Below are positions 31,819 to 62,774 of a stretch of DNA of 64,000 bases, one piece after another. A program made the translations under genes and the position numbers. Source of the stretch: Spirochaetia bacterium (GTDB taxonomy: Bacteria > Spirochaetota > Spirochaetia > SZUA-6 > Bin103); the NCBI GenBank assembly GCA_965198005.1, contig CBDAOI010000003.1, positions 384,001 through 448,000 on the forward strand, in the 5' to 3' direction. The first letter of the stretch is position 1. Every line of letters begins with the position of its first letter. Under the pieces are notes generated by a model that worked only from the letters and a program-made list of their open reading frames with translations, did no database searches and had not been told where the DNA came from.

Positions 31819-31847
31819 TTGACTAAACGGATCAGGATAGGTAAGAT
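31819..31847 (+). promoter_or_regulatory. Sigma-70 promoter of the sulfate operon with overlapping imperfect palindrome (possible Rrf2 operator)
   Basis: TTGACT-N17-TAAGAT. cTTGACTaaacgGATCAGg dyad overlaps the -35 box. Confidence 0.6.
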
Positions 31848-31858
31848 TGCGCCTGGAC

Positions 31859-32272
31859 ATGTTGTCGCTGTCGGCCAAGGCACGCTACGGGTTGCAGGCG
31901 GCCTACGATCTGGCGCAGCACGCCGGTACCGGACCGCGCCAGATCCGGGAGGTGGCCGCGGATCAGGGAATTCCGCAGCACTTTCTGGAGCAGGTGCTGG
32001 TCCAGCTCAAGCGCGCGCGCGTGGTGCGCAGCTTCCGCGGCAGCCAAGGGGGCTACGCCCTGGCGCGGGACGCGTCCCGGATTACGGTGCTGGAGATCCT
32101 GACCAGCCTGGACGGCCCGCTGGAGTTGGGCAGCGGGCCCTGGAACGACCCGGTGCTGGCGGCGCCGCTGCGCCGCGCCGAGGCGGATCTCAGCCGCTGC
32201 CTGCAGGTGACCCTGGCCGACCTGATCTGGAACAAGCAGCGCTCCCAGCCGAGCCTGACCTATCAGATCTGA
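31859..32272 (+). CDS. Rrf2 family regulator, CymR-like (no Fe-S cysteine triad)
   Basis: [33 protein letters not shown]. Confidence 0.92.
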
Positions 32273-32304
32273 GGAAAGACTGAGGAAGACTGAGGAGGGA
32301 CTCG

Positions 32305-33048
32305 ATGAAGGACCGGATGGAACAGACAGCCGTCACCGTCGACGACGCGCAGGCGCAGTTCACCGCCGCCGCCGCGGATGGGCCCGAGGCGCTGCTGCGC
32401 GCACTGGTGGCGCGCTACGGCCGCGCGCTGAAGCTGGCCTCGTCGCTCGGGGCCGAGGATCAGGTGTTGACCCACATGGTGCTCGGCATCGACCCGGGCG
32501 CGACCATCTTCGTGCTCGATACCGGGCGCCTCCACCAGGAGACCTACGACCTGATGGCGCGCACCATGAGCCGCTACCGGATGCACTACGAGGTGCTGTT
32601 TCCGGATGCCGCCGCGGTCCAGGAGATGGTCGGCGGCGGCGGCCCCAACCTGTTCTACGCCAGCGTCGCCGGCCGCCAGCGCTGCTGCGCGGTGCGCAAG
32701 GTGGAGCCGCTGGGCCGGGCCCTGGCCGGGGCCGCGGCGTGGATTACCGGCCTGCGCCGCGCCCAGAGCCCGGAGCGCGCGCATACGCCGTTCGTGGAGT
32801 GGGACGCGGCGCACGGCGCGCTCAAGGCCAATCCGCTGGCGGACTGGAGCGAGGCCCGGGTGTGGGACTACCTGCGCGCCCACGACGTGCCCTACAACAT
32901 GCTGCACGACCGCGGCTTCGCCAGCATCGGCTGCGCCCCGTGCACGCGCGCCATCGAGCCGGGCGAGGATCCGCGCGCCGGGCGCTGGTGGTGGGAGCAG
33001 GGCACGGCCAAGGAGTGCGGGCTGCACCCGCCGGGGGGCGCCGCGTGA
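32305..33048 (+). CDS. cysH: APS/PAPS reductase, Fe-S APS-reductase type
   Basis: [45 protein letters not shown]. Confidence 0.95.
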
Positions 33049-33926
33049 CCGGCCTCGAGCGCCTGGAGGCGCAGAGCGTCTACATCCTGCGCGAGGCGTA
33101 CCGGGAGTTCCCGCGCCTGTGCATGCTGTGGTCGATCGGCAAGGACAGCACCGTCATGTTGTGGCTGACGCGCAAGGCGTTCTTCGGCGAGGTGCCGTTC
33201 CCGCTGGTGCACGTCGACACCTCGTTCAAGATCCCGGAGATGATCGCCTACCGCGACCGCCTGGTGCGCACCTGGCGGCTCAACCTCATCTACGGCGAGA
33301 ACCGGGCCGCGCTCGACGCGCGCCAGACCTTCCCGGCCGGCGCGCTGTCGCGCATCGCCTGCTGCAAGGCGCTCAAGACCGACGCGCTGGTGAACACCCT
33401 GTCCGGCGCCTGGCCGCGCTACCGGTTCGATCACGAGCAGGACCAGTACGTGGTCGACCCGAACCCCGAGCCCTACACCGGGGTGATCGTGGGCGCGCGC
33501 GCGGACGAAGAGGGCAGCCGGTCCAAGGAGCGCTACTTCTCGCCGCGCGACCATCACAGCGACTGGGACATCGGCGATCAGCCGCCCGAGCTGTGGAACC
33601 AGTTCAAGACCGACTTCGCGCCCGGCACCCACGTGCGCGTGCATCCGCTGCTGGACTGGACCGAGCTCAACATCTGGGAGTACATCGCGGCCGAGAACAT
33701 CCCCGTGGTCCCGCTCTACTTCGACCAGGGCGACGGCACCCGCTTCCGGTCGCTCGGCTGCTACCCGTGCACCAAGCCGGTCGCCTCCACCGCCTCCACG
33801 GTCGCCGAGATCGTCGAAGAGCTGCGCACCGGGAGGTTCTCGCACGTGGCCGAGCGTTCCGGGCGCGAGCAGGACAAGGAGGGCGACGGCACCCTCGAAG
33901 TGCTGCGCCGCGAGGGCTACATGTAG
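33045..33926 (+). CDS. cysD: Sulfate adenylyltransferase subunit 2
   Basis: [49 protein letters not shown]. Confidence 0.95.
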
Positions 33927-34019
33927 TGGGCGCCCCTGCGACTGCGCGCATCGGCGGCCCCGGCGGCCGCGCCCACCGCTACGCCCGCCGCCGCGCCCCC
34001 GTCCGCGGAAGTGGCGGCG

Positions 34020-35816
34020 ATGAACATCGTCATCATCGGCCACGTCGACCACGGCAAGAGCACCGTGGTCGGGCGGTTGCTGCACGACACCGGGGTGTTG
34101 CCGCACGGCCGGATCGAGCAGGTGCGGCGCAACTGCGAACGCTCCGGCAAGCCGTTCGAGTACGCGTTCCTGATCGACGCGTTGCGCGACGAGCAGGCGC
34201 AGGGCATCACCATCGACGCGGCGCGCGTGTTCTTCCGCTCCGCCAAACGGCGCTACATCATCATCGACGCCCCCGGCCACATCGAATTCCTCAAGAACAT
34301 GATCACCGGCGCGGCCCGCGCCGAAGCGGCGATACTGGTGATCGACGCCCGCGAAGGCGTACGCGAGAACTCGCGCCGGCACGGGTTCATGGCCGCCATG
34401 CTCGGCATCCGGCAGCTCCTGGTGCTGGTGAACAAGATGGACCTGGTCGACTACGACGCGGCGGTCTATACCGCCATCCACCGGGAATACGCGGCGTTTC
34501 TCGAACAGATCCAGGTGGCGCCGGTGGGCTTCATTCCGGTGAGCGGGCGCCACGGCGACAACCTGGTGGCGCTTTCGCCGCGCACGCCGTGGTACGCCGG
34601 AGAGCCGCTTTTGGCGCAGATCGACGCCCTGGACAGCGCCGGTCCGGCCGCGGCGCAGGCGTTGCGGCTGCCGGTGCAGGACGTGTACAAGTTTCCGGTG
34701 CGCGGCGACGACGCGCGCATCATCGCCGGCACCATCGCCACCGGCCAGGTGGCGGTCGGCGATACGGTGGAGTTCCTGCCGTCGCGCAAGCGGGCGCGGG
34801 TGCACGGCATCGAGGGCTTCAACGTCCCGGCGGCGCGGGCGGCCGCGGCCGGCGCCGCCACCGGCATCACCCTCACCGAAGAGCTGTACGTGCGCCCCGG
34901 CGAGGTGATGTACCGGGTGGGCGAGGCGCCGCCCAAGGTGGGCACCACGTTTCGCGCCAACCTGTTCTGGCTGGGCCGCAACCCGCTGGTGCGCGGCAAG
35001 CGCTACCGGCTCAAGCTGGCCACCGCGCGGGTGCCGGTGCACCTGAAGGAGATCGTGCAGGTGCTGGATGCCGCCACCCTGGAGCGGACCAAGGCGAAGC
35101 AGCACGTCGGGCGGCACGACGTGGCCGAGTGCGTGCTGGAAACCCACAAGCCGATCGCGTTCGATCTCGGGGTGGACGCCGAGTTCGCGGCCACGGGACG
35201 GTTCGTGCTGGTCGATCAATACGAGATCGCCGGCGGCGGCATCATCACCGAGTACCGGTCCAGCCTGAAGAACGCGCTGCGCGAGCACGTCCGGCAGCGC
35301 GACTACGCCTGGGTGCACGGTACAATCACCAGCGAGCAGCGGGTCGAGCGCTACGGCCAGCGGCCGCGGCTGGTGGTGCTCACCGGACCGGAGCGCCGGC
35401 CGCTGGTGGAGATCGCGCGTCAAGTGGAGGGTGAGCTGTTTCGCGGCGGCCGCAGCGTGTACTACTTCGGCCTCTCCAATCTGGCGCGCGGCCTGGATGC
35501 CGACCTGTCCGGCGCGGAGCTGCCCGGCAGCGAGACCCGCGACGAGCAGATCCGCCATCTGGGCGAGGTGGCCCACATCCTGACCGACACCGGCCAGATC
35601 GTGATTACCACGGTGACCGACCTCGACGTGCATGAAGCGGAGACCCTGCGCATCCTCAATCAGCCCAACGACGTGCTGGTGATCCGCATCGGCCCCGACC
35701 GCTACGGCGTGAACGCCGATCTGGTGCTGCCGCAGCAGCAGGTGGCGCGGGCGGCGGTGGCGGCCGTGTGCCGCATGCTGCGCGAGCGCGAGGTGGTGCT
35801 CGAATATTACCTGTGA
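34020..35816 (+). CDS. cysN: Sulfate adenylyltransferase subunit 1 with degenerate APS-kinase domain
   Basis: [27 protein letters not shown]. The C-terminal kinase-like domain lacks a Walker A. Confidence 0.92.
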
Positions 35817-35845
35817 TCGGGTGGCTGTGATCGGGTGGTTGTGAC

Positions 35846-37270
35846 GTGGTGCCCGTGACCGGGTTCGTGAGCCTGATCGGCGCCGGGCCGGGAGATCCGG
35901 AGTTGATCACCGTGCGCGGGCAGCGCGCCCTGGCCGCGGCCGACGTGATCGTCCACGACGAGCTGGTGGACCGGCGCATCCTGGCGCCGTACGCCGGCCG
36001 CGTCCTGCACGGCCTGGGAGACCGGCGGGCGCCCGCCGCGCACCGGCAGCAGCGCCTGCACGCGCTGTTGGCCGCCGAGGCGGGGGCCGGCCGGCGCGTC
36101 GCGCACCTCAAGGGCGGCGATCCGTTGCTGTTCGCGCGCGGCACGGAGGAGATCGAGTTTCTGCGCGCGCGCGCCATTCCGTACGAAGTGATACCGGGCA
36201 TCACGGCGGCGGTAGCGGCCGCGGCGTACGCCGAGCTGCCCCTGACGCGGCGCCGGCTCGCCTCGTCGGTGGCGTTCTGCACCGGGCATGCGGCCGCGAT
36301 TACGGTGCCGCAGGCCGACACGCTGGTGTACTACATGGCGGCCGCCCGCCTGGCGGAGGTGGCGCAGCGGGTGCTGGCGGAAGGCTGGCCCGCGACCACC
36401 CCGCTGACCCTGGTGCGCCAGGCGACGCGCCCCGAACAGACGGTCTTGACCACCACCCTCGGCCGGGCCGCGGCCGGGTCGGTGCCGATGGCGCCGCCGC
36501 TGGTGGCGTTGATCGGGCCGGGCGGGAAGCCGCTCGCCGGCCGGGTCGACCGCTCCTGGTTCACGCGTGCGCGCAAGGTACTGGTGACCGGCACCAGCCT
36601 CGAGCCGTACCGCGGCCTGGGTGAGCTGGTGCACACGCCGCTGATCCGGATCGCCGAACCCGACGACGGCGCCCCGTTCGACGCCGCGCTGCGGCGCCTC
36701 GGCGGCTTCGACCTGATCGGCTTCACCAGCCGCTACGCGGTAGCGGCGCTGTTCGCCCGCCTGCTGCGCCTGGGCGCGGACAGCCGGCGGCTGGCGCACG
36801 CCACCATTGCGGCGGTGGGCAGGAGCACGGCCGCGGCCCTGCGCGCGCGCGCGGTGCTGGCCGACGTCACCGCCGCGCCGGAGAGCACGGCCGGGCTACT
36901 GGCCGCGCTACGCGCCGGACCGGCGCTGGCCGGCCGGCGGGTCCTGCTGCCGCGCTCGGAGATCGCCGATCCGGAGCTGCCGGCGGCGCTGCGCCGGGAG
37001 GGCGCCGCGGTCACCGCGGTCACCGCCTACCGCACCTTGCCGGTCGCCGACCCGCCGCGGGTCGACCTGAGCGCGTTCGGTGCGGTCCTGTTCACCTCGC
37101 CCTCCGCCGTGGACGCGTTCCGCCGGCTGTACGGCTCCGCCCCGCCGGCCGCGGTCGCGCTCTGGTGCCGCGGCCCCCTGACCCGGGCCGCGGCCCGCGC
37201 CGCCTTCGGCCGCGGCGAGCCACTGCCCGCCGTCCCAGCCCCGGACCCGCCGCCCGCCGGCAACGCTTAG
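35846..37270 (+). CDS. cobA: Uroporphyrinogen-III C-methyltransferase / uroporphyrinogen-III synthase fusion
   Basis: IGAGPGDPELIT, LKGGDP..FARG.EE, IPGITA. HemD part: FTSRYAV, AVG..TA, FTSPSAV. Confidence 0.9.
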   Translation: MVPVTGFVSLIGAGPGDPELITVRGQRALAAADVIVHDELVDRRILAPYAGRVLHGLGDRRAPAAHRQQRLHALLAAEAGAGRRVAHLKGGDPLLFARGTEEIEFLRARAIPYEVIPGITAAVAAAAYAELPLTRRRLASSVAFCTGHAAAITVPQADTLVYYMAAARLAEVAQRVLAEGWPATTPLTLVRQATRPEQTVLTTTLGRAAAGSVPMAPPLVALIGPGGKPLAGRVDRSWFTRARKVLVTGTSLEPYRGLGELVHTPLIRIAEPDDGAPFDAALRRLGGFDLIGFTSRYAVAALFARLLRLGADSRRLAHATIAAVGRSTAAALRARAVLADVTAAPESTAGLLAALRAGPALAGRRVLLPRSEIADPELPAALRREGAAVTAVTAYRTLPVADPPRVDLSAFGAVLFTSPSAVDAFRRLYGSAPPAAVALWCRGPLTRAAARAAFGRGEPLPAVPAPDPPPAGNA

Positions 37271-40365: not shown

Positions 40366-40478
40366 CGCAAAGGCGAGGGGTGTGGCGGGACTGGCCGACC
40401 GTTATTCCGGCGCCGGCGTGCCCTGGAACCGGATTCCCGACACGGTCGTCATTGCGTCGTCGACCCGCCGCATGAGGT

Positions 40479-43643: not shown

Positions 43644-43646
43644 CCG

Positions 43647-48632: not shown

Positions 48633-48719
48633 TGCATCCGCATCAACGATCAGTGGCGGATCTGCTTCCGGTGGAACCGGGGCGACGCGTTCGATGTGGA
48701 GATCACGGACTATCATTAA
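48633..48719 (+). pseudogene. higB: HigB toxin C-terminal fragment
   Basis: IRINDQWRICFRW..GDA.DVEITDYH. The N-terminus is missing. Confidence 0.8.
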
Positions 48720-48729
48720 GGAGCGAGAC

Positions 48730-49071: not shown

Positions 49072-49204
49072 ACACCTGACGTGCAAGACGGACTACGCGC
49101 GACGGCCCACGTCACGACAAGGGGCCTTCGCGCTCGCAGTTTCCTTGAAACTGTCTCGATAGCCAAAAGAAGAGGTTCATTTACAGGGAGCGAAGGCGAC
49201 CCCC

Positions 49205-50122: not shown

Positions 50123-51132
50123 ACTCGTTGTTTCCCCTTATAACGTACCCTGGGGTCTAAATAAGGATAAATCAGGTCGATAAATAGATTGGCCCCCACA
50201 ACCACGGTGGCGAAAAACAGGTTTACTCCGGAGACCACTGGGTAGTCTCTCTCATTGAGTGCATTCACCATGAGACGACCTAGCCCCGGCAGGGCAAATA
50301 AGTTCTCCATGATAACGGAGCCACCTACCAGGATAGGCAACTGCATGCCTATAAGGGTAACTATCGGGATGAAGGCATTTTTGAGGGCGTGTCTCATAAT
50401 AACTACCCTCTCCTTGAGACCCTTGGACCAGGCCGTCCTGATATAGTCCTGCCTGAGCACGTCCAGCATCGCGGTACGCGTCAGCCGCATCGTGCCTGCA
50501 GACATGGCCGTCCCCAGAATCACGCTGGGAATGATGAACATCCCGAGATTCCCCAGCGGATCTTCCGTGAAAGGAACCCACTCCATCGGTGGCGCCCAGC
50601 CCCACCAGATTGACGGGAAGAGCAGGACCATAATTCCCAGCCAGAAGTTAGGCGTTGCCATGCCGATGATGGCTATGGAGCGCCCCACGTAGTCGGCGAC
50701 CGTATCCTGACGAATCGCCGAGTAGATGCCGACTGGCAACGCTATCAACTGCCCGAGTACGAGTGCCATGAGGCCAAGCTCAATGGTTATCGGCAGGCTA
50801 GCTATTATTCTCTCCTCTACCGCAACACCCCAAAACAGTGAGTCGCCAAGGGTGCCCTGGAGGATACCTCTAAAGTGGGACTCACCGGTAATCCAGTCAG
50901 GGGTCGGCAACACTCCTATCCAGCGTCCATACTGCACGTAGGCAGGCACGTCCAATCCCAGCATACGCTCAAAAACTTCACGGTCTATCTCTTGACCTAC
51001 ATCTTGTAACCTTCCTTCTATTATGTCTATTACATCGCCCGGGATGAAGCGGACCAGGAGAAAGACGAGGATGGTCAGTATGAACAGAGTCGGGATTATC
51101 AGAAATAAGCGCCTGATGATATAGGCTCTCAT
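50119..51132 (-). CDS. Peptide/nickel ABC transporter permease (DppB-type)
   Basis: YIIRRL, QDYIRTAWSKGL, RHALKNA, RDYPVV, LDPRV. Confidence 0.93.
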   Translation of the reverse strand: MRAYIIRRLFLIIPTLFILTILVFLLVRFIPGDVIDIIEGRLQDVGQEIDREVFERMLGLDVPAYVQYGRWIGVLPTPDWITGESHFRGILQGTLGDSLFWGVAVEERIIASLPITIELGLMALVLGQLIALPVGIYSAIRQDTVADYVGRSIAIIGMATPNFWLGIMVLLFPSIWWGWAPPMEWVPFTEDPLGNLGMFIIPSVILGTAMSAGTMRLTRTAMLDVLRQDYIRTAWSKGLKERVVIMRHALKNAFIPIVTLIGMQLPILVGGSVIMENLFALPGLGRLMVNALNERDYPVVSGVNLFFATVVVGANLFIDLIYPYLDPRVRYKGKQRV

Positions 51133-51176
51133 GTTACACACCTCATTGCGATTTCACCCGTTATTGCGCTTTCCGC

Positions 51177-51203
51177 CGTCATTCCCGCGAAAGCGGGAAT
51201 CCA
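51177..51203. repeat. REP-like palindrome
   Basis: CGTCATTCCCGCGAAAGCGGGAATCCA, a widespread hairpin type. Degenerate GTCATT-starting relatives occur on the minus strand to about 51405. Confidence 0.7.
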
Positions 51204-51479
51204 CCTTCCACGTCTTTCCGGCCCCTTCCACTGAAGGGCTTGTCCTGAACGAAGTTGAATGGAGCGGCACTCTATAGGGTGCGAATGACCCCTGCCAAAA
51301 AACTCGCCTCTCACCGTTTTGGGAAGTCCAGGGTTCAAGGATCGCTCGAAAGAACACCTGTAGCCCATCGGAATGACAGCAAGAAAGCACGCCTCGCAAT
51401 GACATGGTGTATGGGAGCCGGAAAGCCTCAGCCCCCCAGCTCCCTTTTTCCCTGAGCTCAGCTACAAGGGGTGCAACCC

Positions 51480-53373
51480 CTAATAACCCATTGCTGCCTT
51501 CATCTCATTATCAAACCAGAGGCGGCTGAAGACATCCTGAATTTTCCCTGCTCCAAAGCCGCCTTCGCCGTTATAACCCATCAGCCAAGGCCAATGCACG
51601 TTAAAGGCTGGGCCCAAAGGCCCCCATATAATCCAGTGCTGCTCTATACTGCGCATGTCCATCTCTTTAATCAGCCTCACCTGCTCCTCGGCGGTCTCAG
51701 CGGTCAAGGCAGCTTCATACAGGGCATCATATTCAGCGTCGCTGACTCCTCCGCTGTTCCAAGGATGGCCCGAGTAAAACCTAGGGAATTGAGTGAATGG
51801 ATCAGCCTTGACGCCCGAAACTGTTATTATCAAATCAAACTCTCCAGCTCTCACTTTGGCGTTATGTTCTGCAAGGTTAGGTGTCAGAATTTCCACACGA
51901 ACGCCAATCTCACGCCAATATGCAGCCTGCATTTCTGTCCAGCTCAAATCAAACCGCTCGAAGTGCAAGAACGTGGACTTGAATCTAAAGCCGTCGGCGC
52001 CACGAGGATATCCAGCCTCATCAAGCAGTTTCTCGGCACCTTCCGGATCATACGTGTAGTATCCCTTGAGCTCATCGGACCACTCTTCAAATAGGGTTGT
52101 ATAAGCCGTAAATTCCCTGCCTACGAACCCCCTAGGGGTCGTATCTGCCCTACCCTTAAAGTAGGTAGCGTTCATGGTCTCGAGGTCCAGTCCCATCTGC
52201 ATTGCGTGGCGCACCCTGATGTCGTCCCAGGGCGGCGCGCGGAAATTAGGCCAAGCAGAAGCATTCGACCGTTCTGACCACGGGATCACCACGAGTTCGG
52301 GGTTGGTCCGCATGAGGCTCTCTGCCTGGTCTACAGAGTTTATTTGAGAGGCGCCCTGATAACCTACGTAATCGACCTTACCCGCTCGCAGTGCCGCCAG
52401 AATTGTTGACACGTCCGGGGTAACAAGCAGCTTGTACTCGTCAAAATAGGGCAGGCGGTTCTCTGGGTATTTTTCGTCGTAGCCCCAGTAGTTGGGATTC
52501 TTGGTGTAGGTGACAGAGCTGCCCAGGATCCAGTCAGTTATCATAAAGGGACCGGTGCCCACCAGGTTCCTCCAATCGGAAATGTCGCCGTATTGCTCGA
52601 TTACCTCGGGGGGCTGTATAAACATACTGTTGCCGTCCAAGATAAGGTTCAGATACCCCAGAACACGTAATCGACCTTACCCGCTCGCAGTGCCGCCAGA
52701 ATTGTTGACACGTCCGGGGTAACAAGCAGCTTGTACTCGTCAAAATAGGGCAGGCGGTTCTCTGGGTATTTTTCGTCAGCTTCATGACAACCGTATATTT
52801 GTCGGTGGCCTCTATCGATTCCCAAGGCAGTTTTCCGAGCTCACTTGCAAGTGGGGAGGGTTCGGTGAAACCGCTGCCCAGACCCAAGAAACGGTGAAAG
52901 GAATGTTCTACATCCTTGGCAGTTAGCTCCCGACCGTTCATCGGCGCCTTATCCTGCCAGTGAACGCCTTTACGGATATTGAACACATAAGTTGTGCCGT
53001 CGGTTTGTTCCCAACTTTCCGCCAGCGCCCCCTTCAGGGCGAATAGAGGCGCCATGTAGCCGCCAACAAAAGGATATATGTCCCTATCTATGGCCCAGTC
53101 TATCGTGCCAAGTTTCTCTACAACGGGACTGGTCATCATTGCAGCTCTACCGTGTATATAGTTGTCAGAATAGCCATAATCGGCCTTCCTGGCATAGTGC
53201 ATTGTCCCACCATATTCTGGCGCAGTGTACACCTTGCCGGTGACGGGGTCGGTTACATACTTCTTGTCAGCGGCGGTCGCGTCTTCCTCTGCGCCAGCGG
53301 CCCAGAGGCCGGTCGCGGTCACAACCAGGACCAACGCTACTGCGAAGGTCATTCTAATTCTTACAATATTCAT
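51480..53373 (-). pseudogene. Family-5 ABC substrate-binding protein, interrupted by a 113-bp internal duplication
   Basis: Signal peptide, LAESWE, FNIRKGV.W, GTGPF, NPNYW, RVRHAM, YDPE.A..LL.EAG. 52665-52777 is identical to 52366-52478. Confidence 0.85.
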
Positions 53374-53858
53374 ACGTTTCTCCGTATGTAGATTTTTCGA
53401 GAGTATTGCGTAGCGGAGTGCCGCTCCCTGGCTACTCTCATGCCCGCAACCGCGGGCGCGCCCGCCAACGCGGACGGCCAGTCTGAGTCAATTTGTGAAG
53501 CGCGCGGCGTGTGACTCATCCGGGTTCACCCCGGCTCACGCCGCGCGCCTACGGCTCTTTGAGTATCATTTTGCACCCCCTTTTTTGAGCTATTGGGTGC
53601 TCTGACAGGACCGTGGCTCGGCGATCGGGCGAGCCGCTGCCGCGGCTAGCGCGCATCTGTCGTCGACAACTCTGGTCGGGCACAGATGTGTCGGTTGTCT
53701 GTATAGAGGTGCCGGCAACGCCGGCTGGTGTGGACCGGTGGAGTTTGCGGCCGACCGGGTCGGCCGTTGGACGCACAGATGCGTGGCGGCTGTGCGCCAC
53801 ACGCATCAATGGTGCAGCGCTCAGCACCGGCGCCGCGCGAACGGCTGTCGCGCGGTTA

Positions 53859-54308: not shown

Positions 54309-55190
54309 CTATCCCTGGGCGCGCAGGCCGGCCAGCACGGCGTCGTCGTGCCGCCAGTTGGGGCGCACCTTGACGCGCAGGTCGAGCGTGACGCGGCGCC
54401 CGAAGATCTCGGTCAGCTCTGCCGCGGCGCCGACGCGGATGCGTGCAATGCCGCGGCCCCGGTGACCGACCACGATCCCGACCTGGCTTGGCCGTTCCAC
54501 CCAGATCGTGGCGCGCGCCCACAGCTCGCCGCCGTGCGGCTCCAGGTCCAGCACCTGGACGTACACGGCGTGCGGAACCTCGGCGCGGGTGCCGGTTATG
54601 GTCTGCTCGCGCACGATCTCGGCCACCCGGAACTCGGGACTCTGGTCGGTGTACATGTCGGCGGGGTAGAGCAGTTCGCCACGCGGACTCAGTTCCAGCA
54701 GCCGTTTGACGAGCTGCGCCACCCCCTGGCCGACGGCGGCGGAGATGCTCAGCGCCCGGCCCATGCCGGCGGCAAGCAGCGCGCTCTGCAACCCGGCGTC
54801 GGCCGCCGGCAGATCCGCCTTGTTGCGCAGCGCTACCAGCGGGCCCTGGAATCCGCCGCCGGCGTCGATTACCGCCTGATCTTCGGGCCCGAAGCGGCGC
54901 CCGGCGTCGAACACCAGCAGCAGCACGTCCACTTCCGGGACCACCCGCAGCGCGGCGTCCCGCAGCACGCGATTCAGCTTGCGCGTGCTGTCATGCAGGC
55001 CGGGCGTATCGAGAAAGATGAGCTGGTCGTCGCCGCGCGTGAGAATGCCGCGCACCCGCGTGCGGGTCGTCTGCGGCACCGGCGATACGATCGAGACCTT
55101 GTGTCCGCAGATCCGGTTGACCAGGGTGGACTTGCCGGTAGACGGGCGGCCGATCACCCCGACCGTGCCGACCCGACCGGGACCGGTCAC
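54309..55190 (-). CDS. era: GTPase Era
   Basis: GRPSTGKST, PQTTR, DTPG, NKAD, EVPHA, KH domain. Confidence 0.95.
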   Translation of the reverse strand: MTGPGRVGTVGVIGRPSTGKSTLVNRICGHKVSIVSPVPQTTRTRVRGILTRGDDQLIFLDTPGLHDSTRKLNRVLRDAALRVVPEVDVLLLVFDAGRRFGPEDQAVIDAGGGFQGPLVALRNKADLPAADAGLQSALLAAGMGRALSISAAVGQGVAQLVKRLLELSPRGELLYPADMYTDQSPEFRVAEIVREQTITGTRAEVPHAVYVQVLDLEPHGGELWARATIWVERPSQVGIVVGHRGRGIARIRVGAAAELTEIFGRRVTLDLRVKVRPNWRHDDAVLAGLRAQG

Positions 55191-55897
55191 GGAGAACCGG
55201 AGCGGCGTTCGGTCCCGCCCCGCGCCCGGCGCCGATCGAGGCGCCGCTCCAGACGTTCGGCACGGTTGCGCAGCGTCAGGCGGCGGCGCAATCCGTGCTC
55301 CACCAGAGTCAGGACGTCCTCGATCAGATCGTCGTTCCCCTCCGTCCCGAAGTTCACGAGCAACGCCGTGTACAGCGCCACCAGCATGCGCCGCACGTTG
55401 CGATAGCGGCCGATGCGGAACGTGCGCCGCCGATTGCCGGACTGGAGGATGTCGTCGATCAGGCCGCCGATCCGGTCCAGCACCCACTCCGCCCGCTGGC
55501 GCGGCACCACGCCTGGACAAGAGAAGCGGCGATCCCCCATCAGCATGCCACGCAGGATGGGACTGCGGCGCAGCCCCAGGGTGATGAACCGGTAGAGCGC
55601 CTTGAGTTGATTCATGGGTGACTCGAAGCGCGCAATCACGCGCCGCGCCTCGCCGATCGCGCGCCGTTCGATCAGGTCGAGGATGCGCGCGTAGAATTCT
55701 TCTTTGCTGCGGAAGTAGTTGTAGAAGCTGCCCGTGGCCAGGCCGGCATTGCCGGTGATCTGAGCGATGCTGACCGCCCGGTAGCCGTGCTCGGCGAACA
55801 GCCGTTCGCCGACCTCCAGCAACGCCGCCCGCCGCCGCCGACCCGGTTCGCCGACCGTCCCGGCGGTACCGTCCGGTATCAGTAGTTGCTCTGCCAT
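55187..55897 (-). CDS. TetR/AcrR family regulator
   Basis: LFAEHGY..VSIAQI...AGLATGSFYNYFRSKEE. Confidence 0.9.
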   Translation of the reverse strand: MAEQLLIPDGTAGTVGEPGRRRRAALLEVGERLFAEHGYRAVSIAQITGNAGLATGSFYNYFRSKEEFYARILDLIERRAIGEARRVIARFESPMNQLKALYRFITLGLRRSPILRGMLMGDRRFSCPGVVPRQRAEWVLDRIGGLIDDILQSGNRRRTFRIGRYRNVRRMLVALYTALLVNFGTEGNDDLIEDVLTLVEHGLRRRLTLRNRAERLERRLDRRRARGGTERRSGSP

Positions 55898-55925
55898 ACC
55901 CGCTCCCGACCGCCGCGAACCGAAG

Positions 55926-55941
55926 AAACGAATATTCGGTT
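55926..55941. promoter_or_regulatory. Candidate TetR operator palindrome between tetR and cysteate synthase
   Basis: AAaCGAATATTCGgTT, an AT-rich dyad in a GC-rich background. Confidence 0.45.
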
Positions 55942-56146
55942 CAGATATTCACCTTGCCTCGAAGCCCCTCAGCGCCTAACGGAACGGCTGTAGCAGGCTC
56001 TTTATGGGACACGCTAGCATTTTTCGCCGTCCGGAACAACCCGAGCCTGCCCGGTGCGTGTCGCAGCAAGTACACTACTGGCGATCGCTAGGTCACCGTT
56101 CAGGATAGCGGGCGGACCTGACCCGGAGCCGCTCTCGGGAGGGAAA

Positions 56147-57484
56147 TTGAGTACCGAGCACTACCAACTGCGGTGCATGGCCTGCGGCACGCTCCACGCC
56201 GACAGCGACCACGGGTTCCTGCTGGGCTGCCCGTGCAGCCGGCCGGCCGCGGGGCTGCTGCGCACCGAATATGCCGGCACCCGGTTCGCGCCCGGCGCGG
56301 CCGGCGGCCTGTTCCGCTACGCGCAGTGGCTGCCGGTACGCGCCCACCACCCGCTGGACCTCCTGCGGGGCGGCCGTCCCCCCGCCGGCGCGGTGGCCTA
56401 TCGCAGCGGCCGTCTGGCGCGTCGGCTCGGGCTGAACGACCTGGTCGTGCTGTTCAGCGGCTACTGGCCGGAGCGCGGCGCCCATCTGGAGACCTGCGTG
56501 TTCAAGGAGCTGGAGGCGCTGGCGGTGACCGCCCGCCTGCCGGCGGCGGAACGGCGGCCGCTGGTGGTGGCGTCGGCGGGCAACACCGGGCGCGCCTTCC
56601 ACGCAGTGTGCTCGCGCTACGACATCCCGGCGGTGGTCGTGGTGCCGGAAGCGGCGCTGCCGGCCCTGTGGACCACCGGCGCGGTGTCGCCCGAGGTCGC
56701 CCTGGTCGCGGTCGGCGGCAACGCCGACTACGCCGATGCGATTCGCGTCGCCGGCATGCTCGCCGAATCGCCCGCCTATCTGGCCGAGGGCGGCGCCCTC
56801 AACGTCGCGCGCCGCGACGGCATGGGTTCGGTGCTGCTGGCCGGGGTCGAGTGTGCGGGCCGGCTGCCGCGCCATTATTTCCAGGCGGTCGGCAGCGGAA
56901 CCGGCGCGATCGCGGCCTGGGAGATGGCGCAACGGCTGGTGCGCGACGGCCGCTTCGGGGCGCGCGTGCCGCGCCTGCAGCTCGCCCAGAACGCGCCGTT
57001 CACGATCATGGCCGACGCCTGGGAGGCAGGCAGCCGCTCCCTGCTGCCGCTCGCGCCGGCCACCGCCAAGCGGCGGATCGCGGCGATGAGCGCCGGCGTG
57101 CTGAGCAACCGGACGCCGCCCTACGCCCTGGCCGGCGGTCTGTTCGACGCCCTCACCGCCAGCGCCGGCGCCATGTACCGGGTCAGCAACCGGGAGGCCG
57201 CCGGCGCCGCGGCGCTGTTCGCCGCCAGCGAGGGCTGCGAGCTCGATCCGGCCGCGGCGGTGGCGGTCGCCGCGTTGCGGCAGGCGGTGGCTGGCGGCCG
57301 GGTGGCGCCGGACGACCCGGTGTTCCTCAACGTGACCGGCGGCGGCCTGCAGCGGCTGCGCGCGGCCGGGCGGGTGCGCGCGCTGCCGCCCGACCTCGTG
57401 GTCGACCACCGGGACGCGACCCCGGCGGCCCTGGAGGCGGCGCTGGTACGGGCGCCGGCGCAGCGCGAGCGGGCAATCGCATGA
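56147..57484 (+). CDS. capA: Cysteate synthase
   Basis: GYWPERGA..ETC.FKELEA, ASAGNTGRAF, GG..NVARRDGMG, YFQAVGSGTGAIAAWE, QNAPF, LSNR.PPY. GGAGGG Shine-Dalgarno before TTG. Confidence 0.9.
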   Translation: MSTEHYQLRCMACGTLHADSDHGFLLGCPCSRPAAGLLRTEYAGTRFAPGAAGGLFRYAQWLPVRAHHPLDLLRGGRPPAGAVAYRSGRLARRLGLNDLVVLFSGYWPERGAHLETCVFKELEALAVTARLPAAERRPLVVASAGNTGRAFHAVCSRYDIPAVVVVPEAALPALWTTGAVSPEVALVAVGGNADYADAIRVAGMLAESPAYLAEGGALNVARRDGMGSVLLAGVECAGRLPRHYFQAVGSGTGAIAAWEMAQRLVRDGRFGARVPRLQLAQNAPFTIMADAWEAGSRSLLPLAPATAKRRIAAMSAGVLSNRTPPYALAGGLFDALTASAGAMYRVSNREAAGAAALFAASEGCELDPAAAVAVAALRQAVAGGRVAPDDPVFLNVTGGGLQRLRAAGRVRALPPDLVVDHRDATPAALEAALVRAPAQRERAIA

Positions 57485-58803
57485 GCCGGCACGGTCACTC
57501 CGTGACACGGAAGACGATGAACACCGATACCCAGGCATCGCCTGCTGGCCGACACGTGCGCACCGGCGACCTGTTCGAGAAGTGCTCCGGCGACGGCGGC
57601 TACTTCGGCCGGTACCGCGCCGCCGGCGACAAGTTCGTGGTGCAGCCGATCCTGGATACCCTGCCGGGACCGCACATGGAGTCGAACGGCCGTCCGGTGA
57701 TCATGTGGGGCATCAACAGCTATCTCGGGCTCACCGGCAATCCCCGGATCAAGGCCGCGGCGCTGGCGTCGCTGGAGCAGTACTCCACCTCGGCGCCGAT
57801 GGGCTCCCGGCTGCTGACCGGCAACACCTCCAGGCACGAGGCGCTGGAGGCGCGGCTGGCGGAGTACTGCGAAAAGCCGGCGGCGGTGCTGTTCAACTAC
57901 GGCTACCTCGGCGTCATGGGCACCATCTCGGCCCTGATCGGCCCCAGCGACGAGGTGATCATCGACAAGCTGTCGCACGCGTCGATGATCGACGGCACCA
58001 TTCTGGCGATGGCGGGGCGCCGGTTCCGGCCCTTCCGCCACAACAGCATGGAGAGCCTGGAGCAGCAGTTGCAGGCGGCCCGGCGCAAGCGCGGCGGCGG
58101 CATTCTGATCGTGGTCGAGGGGGTCTACGGCATGCGCGGCGACCTGGCCAACCTGCCGGAAATCGCGGCCCTGGCGCGCCGCTACGAGGCCCGCATCTTC
58201 GTCGACGATGCCCACGGCTTCGCCGTGATGGGGCCGAGCGGGCGCGGCACCGCGGAGCACTTCGGCGTGCAGGATGAGATCGACCTCTACTTCGGCACCT
58301 TCGCCAAGGCGTTCGCGGCGATCGGCGGCGTGACCGCGGGCGAACGCGACGTGATCGAGTACATCCGCTTCAACGCGCGTACCAACGTGTTCGCCAAGGC
58401 GCTGCCGATGGTCTACGTCGACGCGCTGAACGCCACGCTGGATGAGATCCTGGCCCATCCCGAATATCGCGCACGGATGTGGCGCAACGCCCACAAGCTG
58501 CAACGCGGCCTGGTGGAGCTCGGATACAGCATCGGCGATACCGAATCACCGATCACGCCGGTGTACGTGCCGTCGGGCGAAGAAACCGGCCGAGCGATCA
58601 TGGTGATGCTGCGCGAGGAGTATGGGGTGTTTCTCTCGGGCGTCACCTATCCGGTGGTGCCGCGCGGCATCAACCTGTTTCGCATGATCCCGACCGCGTT
58701 GCACACCGACCAGGACATCGAGGTCACGCTGCGCGCGTTTGCCGAGATCCGTGACCGCCTGCACCTCGAGCTCGACCGCGTCCCCCAGCTCGCCACCGCC
58801 TGA
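57481..58803 (+). CDS. capB: Alpha-oxoamine synthase resembling cysteate-C-fatty acyltransferase
   Basis: DLFEK..G.FG, GP.M..NG...W..N.YLGL, PMGSRL, SHASMIDG, VDDAHG, GTFAK, IRFN.R...FAKALPM. ATGA overlap with cysteate synthase. Confidence 0.78.
   Translation: MSRHGHSVTRKTMNTDTQASPAGRHVRTGDLFEKCSGDGGYFGRYRAAGDKFVVQPILDTLPGPHMESNGRPVIMWGINSYLGLTGNPRIKAAALASLEQYSTSAPMGSRLLTGNTSRHEALEARLAEYCEKPAAVLFNYGYLGVMGTISALIGPSDEVIIDKLSHASMIDGTILAMAGRRFRPFRHNSMESLEQQLQAARRKRGGGILIVVEGVYGMRGDLANLPEIAALARRYEARIFVDDAHGFAVMGPSGRGTAEHFGVQDEIDLYFGTFAKAFAAIGGVTAGERDVIEYIRFNARTNVFAKALPMVYVDALNATLDEILAHPEYRARMWRNAHKLQRGLVELGYSIGDTESPITPVYVPSGEETGRAIMVMLREEYGVFLSGVTYPVVPRGINLFRMIPTALHTDQDIEVTLRAFAEIRDRLHLELDRVPQLATA
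57488..57542 (+). repeat. Dispersed 5'-end repeat, copy 2
   Basis: 46/55 identical to 60632-60686 by hand alignment. Confidence 0.85.
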
Positions 58804-59857
58804 CGTTCGGGGCTGGCGCCGCTTCCTGCGCCGGCGCGCGGCGTCCCGCCGGCGGGGTCCGGGCCGGTGCGGGCCGGCGCTCGCCGCGGCGCTCGCCGTG
58901 GCCGGGGTGCTGCCGGGCTTGACCGGGTGCGGCGTGCGCGCCCACCAGCACCAGTTCACCGCGATGTCCACCGTCGTCCGCGTCACCGTCTACCACCGGC
59001 GCGCTCCCGACTGGGCGGCGCTGGAGCAGACGGTCCACGACTGGGCCGCGCGCTACGACCACCGCCTGGCCGCGAGTCCGGTGGCGCAGCTCAACCGCAC
59101 CGGCCAGGCGCAGCTCGACCCCGCGCTGGCGGCGACCCTGGCCGCGGCCGTGCGGCTGGCGCAGCTCAGCGGCGGCGCGTTCGATCCCACCGTCCTGCCG
59201 CTCACCCGGCTGTGGGACTTCGATCACGGCGGCACGCTGCCGCCGGCGGAGGCGCGGGCGCGGGCGCGGGCGCGGGTCGACTACCGCCGGCTGCGGGTCG
59301 TGGCCGACCGGGCAACGGTGGACGACGCGGAGCTCGATCTGGGCGCGATCGCCAAGGGGGCGGTGCTGGATCACCTGGGCGACTGGCTGGAGGCGGGCGG
59401 CCACGACCGGTTCCTGCTGGAGGCGGGCGGCGACGTGCTGGTGGCGGGGCTCAAGCCCGACGCCGTGCCCTGGCGGATCTGGATCCGCCATCCCCGGCAG
59501 ACCGATCTGCCGCTGGCCATCGCCACCATCGGCGTGGCGGACGGCCGGGTGGCGCTGGCAACCTCCGGCGACTACGAGCGGTTCTTTGAGCAGGACGGCG
59601 TGCGCTACCATCACATCCTCAACCCGGCCACGGGACTGCCCGACAGCGACGCGGTGGCGGTGACGGTGATCGCCGGCAGCGCACTTGAAGCAGACGCGCT
59701 CGCGACCGCGTTGTTCGTATTGGGCAGCGCGGGCGCGGAGCTGTTCACGACCGTGCCGGGGCTGGAGGGCGTGATCGTGTACCGGTCCGGCGCCGGCCTG
59801 GCGGCGGCGGTGAGCGACGGCTTTCCGGCGCTGCACGGCCAGCTCAACGTCGAATGA
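58739..59857 (+). CDS. apbE: FAD:protein FMN transferase ApbE (lipoprotein; start uncertain)
   Basis: LTGC lipobox, GAFDPTV.PL..LW, DLGAIAKG, GGDV, ATSGDYER, YHHILNPATG, ADALAT. Confidence 0.92.
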   Translation: MPRSVTACTSSSTASPSSPPPDVRGWRRFLRRRAASRRRGPGRCGPALAAALAVAGVLPGLTGCGVRAHQHQFTAMSTVVRVTVYHRRAPDWAALEQTVHDWAARYDHRLAASPVAQLNRTGQAQLDPALAATLAAAVRLAQLSGGAFDPTVLPLTRLWDFDHGGTLPPAEARARARARVDYRRLRVVADRATVDDAELDLGAIAKGAVLDHLGDWLEAGGHDRFLLEAGGDVLVAGLKPDAVPWRIWIRHPRQTDLPLAIATIGVADGRVALATSGDYERFFEQDGVRYHHILNPATGLPDSDAVAVTVIAGSALEADALATALFVLGSAGAELFTTVPGLEGVIVYRSGAGLAAAVSDGFPALHGQLNVE

Positions 59858-59993
59858 ATCGGCCGCCGGCGGCCGCGATCGGCTGTCGTCGGCTGCCCCG
59901 CGCAATTGGCGGAGCGGTACGCGGTGAGTATATTCCGGCCCGAAGGCGCGCGGTGCCCACCGGCGCGGCGCAGCCGCACAATCTGGAGGCAAG

Positions 59994-60626
59994 GTGCGAC
60001 CACACTGGGACGCGGACGAGCAAGAGGAAGCTGAGGAGGAACAGGAGGAACAGGAGGAACGGGAGGAGCAGGAGGAGCCGGCGGGCGATCCGGCCATGCT
60101 GCGCCAGTTCCTCAAGACCCGCACGGTGCTCCTGACCGGCGAGATCAACAAGACTCTGGCGGAGCGCGTGGTGCGCCAGGTGTTGCTGCTGGAGCAGGGT
60201 GGCGACGAGCCGATCAAGGTGTTCATCGACAGCCCCGGCGGCGACGCCGACGCCGGGTTCGCGATTCTCGACATGATGCGGTTCGTGCGCCCGCAGATAA
60301 AGATGATCGGGATGGGGCTGGTGGCGAGCGCGGGGGCGATCGTGCTGCTGGCGGCGCCCCGCGAGCAGCGCTTTGCGTTGCCCAACTCCCGCTACCTGAT
60401 CCACCAGCCGATGGCCGGCTTTCGCGGGGTCGGCACCGAAATCGAGATCCACGCCAAGGAGATCGACCTCATGCGGCGCAAGATGAACGAGCTGATCTCC
60501 CAGGAGACCGACAAGCCGGTATCCGAGGTGGAGCAGGACACCGACCGCGACTACTGGATGGGAGCCGAGGAAGCCCTGACCTACGGTCTGGTGGGCAAGA
60601 TCATCCGCACCCAGGACGAACTCTGA
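59994..60626 (+). CDS. clpP: ATP-dependent Clp protease proteolytic subunit
   Basis: IDSPGG, ASAG, IHQP, DTDRDYWM..EA..YGLV. Acidic N-terminus. Confidence 0.93.
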   Translation: MRPHWDADEQEEAEEEQEEQEEREEQEEPAGDPAMLRQFLKTRTVLLTGEINKTLAERVVRQVLLLEQGGDEPIKVFIDSPGGDADAGFAILDMMRFVRPQIKMIGMGLVASAGAIVLLAAPREQRFALPNSRYLIHQPMAGFRGVGTEIEIHAKEIDLMRRKMNELISQETDKPVSEVEQDTDRDYWMGAEEALTYGLVGKIIRTQDEL

Positions 60627-60631
60627 CCAGT

Positions 60632-60686
60632 GGCACGGGCACTCCGTGACCCGCAAGACAATGAAATCCGATGCACGGGCATCGCC
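60632..60686 (+). repeat. Dispersed 5'-end repeat, copy 3
   Basis: GGCACGGGCACTCCGTGACCCGCAAGACAATGAAATCCGATGCACGGGCATCGCC. Confidence 0.85.
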
Positions 60687-61659
60687 GAAGCACCATGCCA
60701 CGGCGCGGCGGACGCCCGCCCCCGCGGTGTTCGAACGCCTCGACCGGGAACATCTGCGGCGGCTCGCCGGCACCCGGCCGCGGGTCCACTCCGGCAAGGT
60801 GCGCGACCGCATCGACCTCGGCGACCGCATCCTGATCGTAACCACCGATCGGGTGTCCGCCTTCGACCGCGTCCTGACCACGATTCCGTACAAGGGCCAG
60901 GTGCTGAACCAGCTCTCGGTGTTCTGGTTCAAGCTGACCTGCGACCTGATCTCCAACCACCTGATCCGGGAGGTGACGCCGCGCAGCGCCCTGGTTCGGC
61001 GCTGTACGGTGGTCCCGGTCGAGGTGGTGGTGCGCGGCTACCTGACCGGCTCCGCCTGGCGCGCCTACGAGCGTGACGGCGCCCTGGCCGGCATCCCGCT
61101 GGCGCTCGGCCTGCGGCGCGATCAGCAGTTCGAGCGGCCCCTGCTCACGCCCACCACCAAGGCGGCGCCGGGCGAGCACGACCGGCCGCTGTCCCGCGCC
61201 GAGGTGCTGGCGTCCGGCGCCGTGCCGCCGGCGCTGTGGGAGCGGATCGAGCGCGTGGCGTTGCGGCTCTACCGGCGCGGGGTCGAGCACGCCGCCCGCC
61301 GCGGGCTGATCCTGGTGGACACCAAGTACGAGTTCGGCACCATCGACGGCGAGCTGGTGCTGGCGGACGAGGTGCACACGCCCGACAGCAGCCGCTACTG
61401 GTACCGCGACACCTATGCCGAGCGGTTCGCGCGCGGGCTGGAGCAGCGCCTGCTCGACAAGGAGTTCCTGCGCGGCTGGCTGCTGGAGCGCGGCTTCCAG
61501 GGCGACGGCGCGCCCCCGCCGATCCCGGAGACGGTGCGCGCCGAGCTGGCGCAGCGCTACCGGGAGGTGTATCGGATCCTGACCGGCGCCGAGCTGGCCG
61601 GCGCGCCGCTCAGCGTCGAGGAGGAGCTCGCGCGGTACGCGGAGGTGGTGCGCGGATGA
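60661..61659 (+). CDS. purC: SAICAR synthase
   Basis: GKVRD, TDRVSAFD, KGQVLN, EVVVRGYLTGS, TPTTK, DTKYEFG, DEVHTPDSSRYW. Confidence 0.95.
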   Translation: MKSDARASPKHHATARRTPAPAVFERLDREHLRRLAGTRPRVHSGKVRDRIDLGDRILIVTTDRVSAFDRVLTTIPYKGQVLNQLSVFWFKLTCDLISNHLIREVTPRSALVRRCTVVPVEVVVRGYLTGSAWRAYERDGALAGIPLALGLRRDQQFERPLLTPTTKAAPGEHDRPLSRAEVLASGAVPPALWERIERVALRLYRRGVEHAARRGLILVDTKYEFGTIDGELVLADEVHTPDSSRYWYRDTYAERFARGLEQRLLDKEFLRGWLLERGFQGDGAPPPIPETVRAELAQRYREVYRILTGAELAGAPLSVEEELARYAEVVRG

Positions 61660-62774
61660 GCGGCGGCCGGCGGCGCGGCGGGTGGCTGGCCGCCCTGGCG
61701 CTGGGCGCGCTCCTGCCACTGCTGGCCTCCTGCGGGCCGGGGCAGGCCGGCACCATCACCGTGGTCAGCTACAACGTCCAGAACCTGTTCGACGCCACCG
61801 AAGACGGCGGCGAGTACCGCGATTACACCGCCGGCGGCGGCTGGACGCCGGGCCTGTACACCGCCAAGCTGCGGGCAATCGCCACCGCGCTACGGGCCGC
61901 GGCGCCGCGCGGGGCCGACCTGGTGGCGCTGCAGGAGGTGGAGCACGCCGGCCCCGCGCGCCGGCTGGTGGAGCTGGAGCTGGCGCGCGCGGGGTACCGC
62001 CACGTGGTGTGGCTGCCCGACCCGCTCAACGCCACCGGACCGGTGGTGCTGTCCAAGCTGCCGGTGCGCCGGGTCGGCGCGCTGTGGGTGGACCACCCGC
62101 ACGAGCAGCCGCTACGCCCGATTCTCGAGGTGGAGGTGGCCCTGGGCACCACCCCGGACGCGCCCTCGCTGTTCCTGTTCAACAACCATTGGAAGTCGAA
62201 ACGGGGCGGTGCGGCCGAGACCGAGCAGCACCGGCGCCGCGCCGCCGCCGTGCTGGCCGCCCGCCTGCGCCAGATCCACGCCGCCGACCCCGCCGCCGAC
62301 GTGATCGTGGTGGGCGACCTGAACGAATCGATCGACGAGTATGAGCGCCAGGACCGGCGCTATCCCACCGCGCTGATGCCCGCGGCAGCCGCGCCGCCGG
62401 GTGGCGGTGGCGCACCCGCCGCCCCGGCCCCGCTGTACGTCACCGCAGCGGCCGCGTCCGCCGCCCGGCCCGCGGCCGGCGCCCCAGTGGTGCTGTTCAG
62501 CCCCTGGCTGGCCGCCCCCGACGCCGTCGCGCCGCCCGGCAGCTACCACTACCAGGAGCAGTGGGAAACCATCGACCACGTCCTGCTCGGCCCCGGCCTG
62601 TTCGACACGGCCGGCGTCAGCTACCCGGACGCGGACGGCTTCGCGGTCATCAGCGACGGCCTGCTGGACGGTAGCGGCGCCCCGTTCCGGTTCCTGCGCG
62701 GCCCCCCGCCGGCCGGCTACTCCGACCACCTCCCCCTGCGCCTGACCCTGATCCTGCACCACGCCCCCCGCTGA
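61656..62774 (+). CDS. Endonuclease/exonuclease/phosphatase family lipoprotein
   Basis: LASC lipobox, SYNVQNLFD, LQEVE, NHWKSK, GDLN, IDH, YSDHLP. Confidence 0.9.
   Translation: MSGGRRRGGWLAALALGALLPLLASCGPGQAGTITVVSYNVQNLFDATEDGGEYRDYTAGGGWTPGLYTAKLRAIATALRAAAPRGADLVALQEVEHAGPARRLVELELARAGYRHVVWLPDPLNATGPVVLSKLPVRRVGALWVDHPHEQPLRPILEVEVALGTTPDAPSLFLFNNHWKSKRGGAAETEQHRRRAAAVLAARLRQIHAADPAADVIVVGDLNESIDEYERQDRRYPTALMPAAAAPPGGGGAPAAPAPLYVTAAAASAARPAAGAPVVLFSPWLAAPDAVAPPGSYHYQEQWETIDHVLLGPGLFDTAGVSYPDADGFAVISDGLLDGSGAPFRFLRGPPPAGYSDHLPLRLTLILHHAPR

Follow-up and report, generated by a model that had tools for sequence, protein, structure and literature searches.

A spirochaete locus that very probably encodes the start of sulfonolipid synthesis

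Organization of the locus

We analyzed a 64,000-nucleotide stretch of the genome of a Spirochaetia bacterium (assembly GCA_965198005.1; G000:C3:384001-448000), hereafter the window, in which a cysteate synthase gene overlaps a gene for a predicted cysteate C-fatty acyltransferase (CFAT), with a divergent TetR-family regulator gene upstream. The genome comprises 4.89 Mb in 4 contigs and is 90.4% complete and 3.3% contaminated. Genes in the region are arranged in the order era (−), tetR (−), cysteate synthase (+), oxoamine synthase (+), apbE, clpP and purC, the pair being flanked by all four of the core genes era, apbE, clpP and purC, as described in the initial annotation. The central features, in window coordinates, are:

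56147..57484, plus strand: cysteate synthase of the archaeal (threonine-synthase-like) type, recognized by TIGR03844 and PDB entry 9k3c
57481..58803, plus strand: predicted cysteate C-fatty acyltransferase (CapB/SulA/CFAT type), recognized by its scores against PDB entries 28eh and 7u7h and by Lys K306; coupled to the synthase by an ATGA overlap
55187..55897, minus strand: divergent TetR-family regulator (PF00440, E 1.3e-13)
55929..55951, plus strand: inverted-repeat site YGAAT-N6-TTCA-NN-TATTCA, 23 bp, putative TetR operator, conserved in 9/9 aligned intergenic regions

For comparison, we used a family sample of 24 genomes (G000 and 23 others), a phylum sample of 301 genomes in which the synthase was scored by the TIGR03844 cut-off and the acyltransferase at E<=1e-120, and a homologue scan of named genomes for the acyltransferase, where the best 80 of 589 were kept (the 80 named loci). 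The named loci and further relatives were drawn from one genome release and are not independent.

The acyltransferase resembles CapB and SulA

The 440-residue product of 57481-58803, ACYLTRANSFERASE, is a fold-type I α-oxoamine synthase (PF00155 match), in which K276, the Schiff-base lysine, aligns with K250 of CapB. It falls under every NCBIfam cut-off for serine palmitoyltransferase (SPT), BioF and Kbl (score/cut-off: NF047600 315.6/640, NF047599 291.1/500, NF047603 225/670, BioF 291.8/426, Kbl 246.7/493). Among PDB entries it matches CapB (28eh, 381.4 bits) and SulA (7u7h, 356.5) above SPT (266.9), Kbl (194.6) and BioF (161.9), and a profile built from 13 order-level homologues scores CapB at 484, SulA at 448 and SPT at 312. 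The scores bear out the likeness to CapB over BioF and Kbl claimed in the initial annotation, and the DLFEK...GP.M and FAKALPM motifs to which it pointed are present.

We next compared individual residues with those described for the solved enzymes. Ten CapB residues are listed within 4 Å of the cysteate adduct of pyridoxal 5'-phosphate (PLP) in the available text of PMC13692747, and eight of these are identical here in the PDB alignment: N79, G141, Y142, H166, H245, T273, K276 and K306; the two that differ are F113 (Y140 here) and C141 (S168). The identical pocket residues take in CapB Y115, K250 and K280. Among additional positions discussed in that text, E187, F245 and A249 are of CFAT type, unlike A82 (S109, SPT-like) and M277 (V303). 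Lys281 has been proposed as the mark dividing SulA from Spt (PMC9304779, available text); this diagnostic lysine (SulA 281/CapB 280; Ala in SPT) corresponds to K306, which is invariant in 13/13 order-level homologues. As judged by scores and residues, assignment to the CapB/SulA type is well supported. In a predicted model (mean pLDDT, the predicted local distance difference test score, 81.8), Foldseek ranks 1-4 are SulA chains with a TM-score of 0.86 versus 0.84 for SPT; the fold adds little, because SPT is so close behind. The input alignment of the model included Bacteroidota homologues.

CFAT-type genes also occur beyond Bacteroidota and spirochaetes, in records labelled Legionellaceae (L067, L068), Sandaracinaceae (L060), Aminicenantes (L056, L059, L061, L064, L097), WOR-3 (L086) and Anaerofustis (L084). 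A synthase gene adjoins the CFAT-type gene in L060, L084 and L086, and the diagnostic lysine is kept in those that were aligned or motif-checked.

The synthase is of the archaeal type

The product of 56147-57484 matches TIGR03844 with 464.8 bits (cut-off 324.9) over model positions 1-396 of 398. In the PDB it comes closest to 9k3c ('Cysteate synthase', E 3.7e-100), and threonine synthases follow at E 4e-13 or weaker. A cysteate synthase had been recognized here before; its label, CapA, needs correction. The matched family is the archaeal cysteate synthase type, which the available text of the review PMC10191378 separates from CapA, and it is this type, not Capnocytophaga CapA, that the review assigns to Alistipes and Odoribacter, where a homologue of the archaeal enzyme is used in place of CapA and serves sulfonolipids. 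The exclusion of CapA rests on the family match and the review, that is, on family description and not on the sequence of CapA itself.

The synthase most likely starts at TTG 56147, which is preceded by GGGAGG (56137-56142) and aligns with the start used in relatives. Both reading frames of the pair are intact. In Methanosarcina, which was the control match in the phylum-sample synthase search, the archaeal-type enzyme has a role in coenzyme M. Such a role for cysteate was considered here and rejected, the 90%-complete genome containing no match to TIGR03845 (ComD, sulfopyruvate decarboxylase).

The ATGA overlap at 57481, reported in the initial annotation, is real and ancestral: in 4/6 relatives aligned, GGAGG and an ATG directly before DLF overlap the synthase stop in the same way. 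The ATGA itself is retained here, and the junction carries an additional element:

57487..57567 (approximate), plus strand: in-frame dispersed-repeat insertion, 27 extra codons between M-S and DLF

The insertion has no counterpart at the junction in 6/6 relatives, and the repeat has 34 matches genome-wide. Residues 1-27 of the acyltransferase are predicted to be disordered (pLDDT <50), and translation could alternatively begin at an internal ATG (57517). The repeat is ~70-80 bp long and can lie in frame where a gene begins, as in the acyltransferase and purC; related copies lie at window position 23875 (23860-23940) and at the purC start at 60644 (60625-60700). An RNA-regulator role of the inserted repeat was rejected, as its folding is not unusual (z 0.07).

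Host genome and co-occurrence of the two genes

The closest homologues of the acyltransferase among the best 80 of 589 (84% identity) are in records titled Spirochaetia or Spirochaetaceae bacterium, and the closest named relatives (5-6/80) share the era-tetR-apbE-clpP neighbourhood, in agreement with the earlier placement of the DNA in a probable spirochaete outside Bacteroidota. Homologues of intermediate identity carry, as recorded, the labels Aminicenantes, Eubacteriales, Cytophagia, Sandaracinaceae, WOR-3, Neomarinimicrobiota, Dehalococcoidales and Legionellaceae. A search for ClpP in plasmids (best match 50%) was uninformative for taxonomy, and the 16S gene appears to be of spirochaete type.

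An alternative is that Bacteroidota DNA was binned wrongly here, or that the contig stems from a recent transfer and is inactive. It is suggested by the assignment of sulfonolipids to Bacteroidota in the available text of PMC10191378 and by the 3.3% contamination of the assembly. This explanation is largely refuted: the contig is 1.22 Mb long with a GC content of 0.66, the same as that of the other three, the closest homologues (84%) come from records with spirochaete titles and share the gene order, both frames are intact, and the acyltransferase is present at 75-86% identity in all 10 same-genus genomes.

In the phylum sample, 21 genomes pass the synthase cut-off and 20 carry the acyltransferase, all 20 being among the 21; the lone synthase-only genome is 89% complete. 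These genomes are not independent, since 14 of the 21 belong to one family. The two genes are adjacent in only 5/20 genomes of this sample and in 40/80 named loci. In a spirochaete family of another class (f24), synthase is found in 14/14 and acyltransferase in 13/14 sampled genomes, never adjacent.

Contigs carrying pieces of tetR, synthase and acyltransferase were found in four 'sponge metagenome' RNA runs of one study, with 0-1 differences per 190-340 bases, which suggests a sponge habitat for this spirochaete. None of the pieces listed spans both synthase and acyltransferase, and contigs are no proof of transcription, so we do not count them as evidence of expression or co-transcription. 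The depth peak at 57424-57707 falls on the dispersed repeat.

The genes that flank the regulator and the pair are:

54309..55205, minus strand: era, a housekeeping gene on the downstream side of tetR (269.9 bits for NF000908, exceeding its cut-off)
58739..62774, plus strand: apbE, clpP, purC and an exo/endonuclease-phosphatase gene, found together in 5-6/80 named loci; a pathway role is not indicated

The downstream set is common only to the closest relatives.

A conserved site follows the operon

The initial annotation had described a divergent TetR gene, which the PF00440 match confirms, and had proposed TetR control of the pair. The product has no NCBIfam family over cut-off; in 24/80 named loci, the acyltransferase has a TetR homologue no more than about 6 kb away. 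A palindrome reported upstream is real, but forms the left part of a wider conserved element of 23 bp at 55929-55951. This site is the sole match in the window at <=2 mismatches (shuffle mean 0.02, with a match in 2/100 shuffles) and the sole match in the genome at <=1 mismatch. In a fixed-pattern search it was found in 14/24 TetR-bearing versus 0/56 TetR-less named loci, where 6 of the 14 helped define the motif and 8 did not, and it is present in 23/24 family genomes, with zero control matches in that family. In five named loci (L034-L038), tetR is downstream and convergent and the site still lies upstream of the operon; the site therefore goes with the operon, and not with the promoter of tetR alone. 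Based on these observations, 55929-55951 is probably a TetR operator, and the conserved site supports the proposed TetR control at the level of sequence. The site presumably resembles the Bacillus FadR box. A wider regulon was considered and rejected, as the site occurs once in the genome.

A possible promoter element lies between the site and the synthase:

56071..56076, plus strand: TACACT, which may be the -10 box of the promoter of the operon, given its presence in 6/9 aligned regions, with one mismatch in a seventh

A sigma-70 scan upstream of the synthase returned no promoter and did not pick up TACACT.

Sulfite and precursor supply

Upstream in the window is a gene set for sulfate activation and reduction that the initial annotation had overlooked:

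31847..37270, plus strand: rrf2-cysH (adenosine 5'-phosphosulfate (APS) reductase)-cysD-cysN-cysG, sulfate-to-sulfite supply

All four enzymes exceed their family cut-offs (cut-offs in parentheses): CysH, TIGR02055, 254.9 bits (235.3); CysD, NF003587, 341 (195); CysN, TIGR02034, 341 (336); and the uroporphyrinogen methyltransferase, TIGR01469, 208 (185). In a close relative (L030), cysD-cysN-cysG abuts era-tetR-acyltransferase directly. A SerC-like gene is present in the genome at 389.6 bits, below the cut-off of 443.6.

About 17 kb separate cysG from era in the window (37821-53400). This stretch holds an HNH-type repeat open reading frame (ORF), a 1054-residue helicase-like ORF, a 1338-residue restriction-modification-like ORF, a HigA-like antitoxin gene and peptide ABC transporter genes of lower GC content, the binding-protein gene being split over two frames near 52534-52640; these names were read from translations and not from database matches.

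Late steps and the serine-type pathway

As the initial annotation had noted, no capC reductase is present in the window, and neither a reductase nor an N-acyltransferase is linked at the locus. The genome search for a CapC-like short-chain dehydrogenase/reductase (SDR) gave no clear orthologue, the best SDRs having 34-36% identity to CFAT-linked SDRs. Ketocapnine reductases are unlinked also in Chryseobacterium and Alistipes, according to the available text of PMC11211663.

Recurrent neighbours of the acyltransferase in the 80 named loci are glyoxalase/VOC (31), SDR (18), cysH/cysD/cysN (12-13) and GNAT (6) genes, and epimerase genes likewise cluster with it in other loci. The VOC protein is a two-domain protein of ~350 residues, and three of its 31 loci are Bacteroidota-labelled (L034-L038, L040, L041, L043, L060, L066, L070-L074, L077-L083, L085-L087, L090, L092, L094, L096, L101, L104, L105).

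These patterns bear on whether the enzyme could use cysteate without leading to a conventional N-acylated membrane sulfonolipid. The product would then be a base left free in its keto or hydroxy form, or else a sulfonate lipid or metabolite with other decorations. The lack of a linked reductase or N-acyltransferase is in line with such a product, and the VOC gene beside the acyltransferase hints at extra chemistry in the clade. We nevertheless consider it unlikely, as this genome encodes no full-length relative of the VOC protein (best match 30% over 144 residues), unlinked ketocapnine reductases have the precedents given above, and other loci group SDR, GNAT and epimerase genes around the acyltransferase.

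The sole other oxoamine synthase in the genome (C4:1640933-1642117) is SPT-like, with SPT as its best match (366.6 bits); CapB and SulA are not among its 18 matches at E<=1e-60. It has Ala at the diagnostic lysine site and thereby serves as an internal control, scores below the NF047600 cut-off (463 versus 640), and is found in 23/24 family genomes. In the surrounding region (C4:1638500-1642200, L114), the next genes after the SPT-like one are fabZ-like and for a long-chain acyl-CoA ligase.

A bCerS-like GNAT gene (C2:532775-533926) is divergent to an NAD(P) epimerase/reductase gene, the pair covering about C2:532775-534954 (L113). A close GNAT homologue (>=57% identity) is present in 23/24 family genomes. 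As the sole such GNAT found in this genome, it is a candidate N-acyltransferase for both bases. Homologues of it on plasmids bear the annotations YghO, 'dATP pyrophosphohydrolase' or GNAT, which we take to be the usual annotations of bCerS, and the best of them (43%) stands in a Rubrobacter synthase-GNAT-reductase row whose other members match the SPT-like gene at 47% and the reductase at 38%.

lpxC was found in 0/24 family genomes and 0/41 relatives, with 4/14 controls positive. A further possible lipid-modifying pair, a fatty-acid-hydroxylase-family gene beside an HpnA-like NAD-dependent epimerase gene, is located at C4:2188150-2190200 (L115:5156-7196).

Proposed pathway and its assessment

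We propose that the locus encodes the start of sulfonolipid synthesis in a spirochaete, and regard this as very probable (roughly 0.8). The proposal is drawn from the genes, with enzyme activity and lipids as predictions; the core idea of the initial annotation, a spirochaete whose cysteate synthase and CapB-type enzyme probably make sulfonolipid bases, is well supported at this level. In the proposed pathway: (i) CysDN and the APS reductase CysH, identified by family, would turn sulfate into sulfite, the flux being predicted; (ii) the PLP enzyme at 56147 would join sulfite and O-phosphoserine to L-cysteate, the known chemistry of its family; (iii) the PLP enzyme at 57481, as suggested by its closest solved relatives and the diagnostic lysine, would condense cysteate with a long-chain acyl-acyl carrier protein or acyl-CoA, with loss of CO2, to a 3-ketocapnine-type base; and (iv) N-acylation and keto-reduction might be carried out by unlinked genes, most plausibly the GNAT on C2 and its divergent reductase, or an SDR. 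The cell, which has no lpxC, would thereby make a membrane lipid that is anionic and free of phosphorus. The conserved 23-bp site suggests that the divergent TetR represses the operon, and the second, SPT-type enzyme would handle serine.

Several observations weigh against this proposal. Four pocket positions are unlike those of CapB: A82 is replaced by S109 and C141 by S168, both SPT-like, F113 by Y140, and M277 by V303. Residue motifs are themselves of limited reach, because according to the available text of PMC13692747 specificity does not rest on few residues, pocket-residue swaps having failed to switch it. The cysHDN genes need not be dedicated to the pathway, since the genome also has a sulfite-reductase-family gene elsewhere. 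The 23-bp site is absent at one mismatch in 10/24 TetR-bearing named loci, and Bacteroidia-, Saprospiraceae- and Rikenella-labelled homologues of the acyltransferase reach only 43-48% identity among the best 80 of 589. For the late steps, at least 8 SDRs have 34-37% identity to CFAT-linked SDRs and none stands out, and the GNAT has no PDB match, no NCBIfam match at 1e-12 and no curated bCerS match. Finally, the synthase is over cut-off in only 6/24 family genomes while the acyltransferase stays, at 70-86% identity, in 24/24. Seven unassayed homologues fetched under Bacteroidota labels likewise have Ser where CapB has A82.

The synthases below cut-off take several forms. In G004 the two parts of the gene lie on two contig ends, in G002 a fragment is present, and in G019 (L018:1420-1947) an internally deleted remnant, a 175-residue ORF, lies between the operator and an intact acyltransferase gene. 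A search for the archaeal-type synthase did not find it in the remaining 15/24 family genomes, several of which are single-contig and about 95% complete, and in L030-L033 the acyltransferase comes directly after the site and tetR. The simplest reading of the pattern would be loss of the synthase and uptake of cysteate from the surroundings. Alternatively, the acyltransferase may have drifted to serine or a cysteate analogue, leaving the synthase as a dispensable passenger, as the SPT-like S109 and S168, the uneven retention of the two genes and the deleted remnant would suggest. We judge this drift very unlikely: those relatives shown to lack the synthase (L030, L031, L033, L018) retain K306, a separate SPT-type gene already exists in 23/24 family genomes, the co-occurrence is 20/20 at phylum level, and cysteate uptake would explain the losses.

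Extending the proposed sulfonolipid pathway, we can picture an lpxC-less, sponge-dwelling spirochaete family whose outer membrane is built from serine and cysteate bases, with one shared bCerS-like acyltransferase and reductase finishing both, a dedicated TetR setting the sulfonolipid share, most lineages having given up cysteate synthesis in favour of cysteate from the host community, and lipids possibly acting on sponge collar cells as on choanoflagellates. This combined picture is doubtful, and host signalling by the lipids is speculation, the near-identical pieces in the sponge RNA contigs being the sole evidence that bears on it. If the shared GNAT and reductase were true, the sulfonolipid N-acylation step would be identified.

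Significance

A 2023 review describes bacterial sulfonolipids as limited to Bacteroidota and possibly mutually exclusive with sphingolipids there (PMC10191378, available text). In a strict genome screen of gut bacteria, 9632/9633 candidate genomes (99.99%) were Bacteroidota, with loose homologues in 21 phyla and no 'spiroch' in the main text (PMC11525784, available text); the available text of PMC11211663 reports loose homologues in 13 phyla, and its phylum list, given in a figure, may include spirochaetes. Titles and abstract openings of the literature searched report neither sulfonolipids nor these genes in spirochaetes, and supplementary phylum tables may bear on novelty. At the gene level, the present genome family challenges both the Bacteroidota limit and mutual exclusivity.

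What the locus contributes is a probable operator, a family without lpxC in which a serine-type pathway exists beside the cysteate-type one, and a synthase lost repeatedly. It also provides concrete candidates for the regulator, its site and the N-acylation step. Because the chemistry itself is already known, the gain lies in range, regulation and testable candidates. Were the lipids confirmed, sulfonolipids would no longer be a Bacteroidota marker in marine lipidomics, and the family would offer a natural test case for an anionic lipid supporting a lipid-A-free outer membrane, as anionic sphingolipids can do in Caulobacter (PMC9393093, available text).

Comparison with known systems

The SPT-like gene and the GNAT/reductase pair, with the GNAT as a candidate bCerS, resemble the bacterial ceramide pathway Spt-bCerS-CerR of Caulobacter, as described in the available texts of PMC9393093, PMC11324152 and PMC11334938. 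Unlike in Caulobacter, the three genes are unlinked and co-exist with a cysteate-type enzyme. The synthase resembles the archaeal-type cysteate synthases (TIGR03844; 9k3c) in exceeding the curated cut-off across the whole model; it differs in being coupled to an acyltransferase, in a genome without ComD, and in being lost or broken in most family genomes.

The acyltransferase has its full-length best matches in CapB (CO-CFAT) of Capnocytophaga ochracea (28eh, 28fa; PMC13692747, available text) and SulA of Alistipes finegoldii (7u7h; PMC9304779, available text). With these it shares the Schiff-base lysine, the trans-subunit lysine (K280/K281), the GY motif, E187, F245 and A249. Its identity to SulA is about 41%, and it differs in its spirochaete host, in the substitutions A82S, C141S, F113Y and M277V, in a 27-residue repeat-derived N-terminus, and in its coupling to an archaeal-type synthase behind a TetR site.

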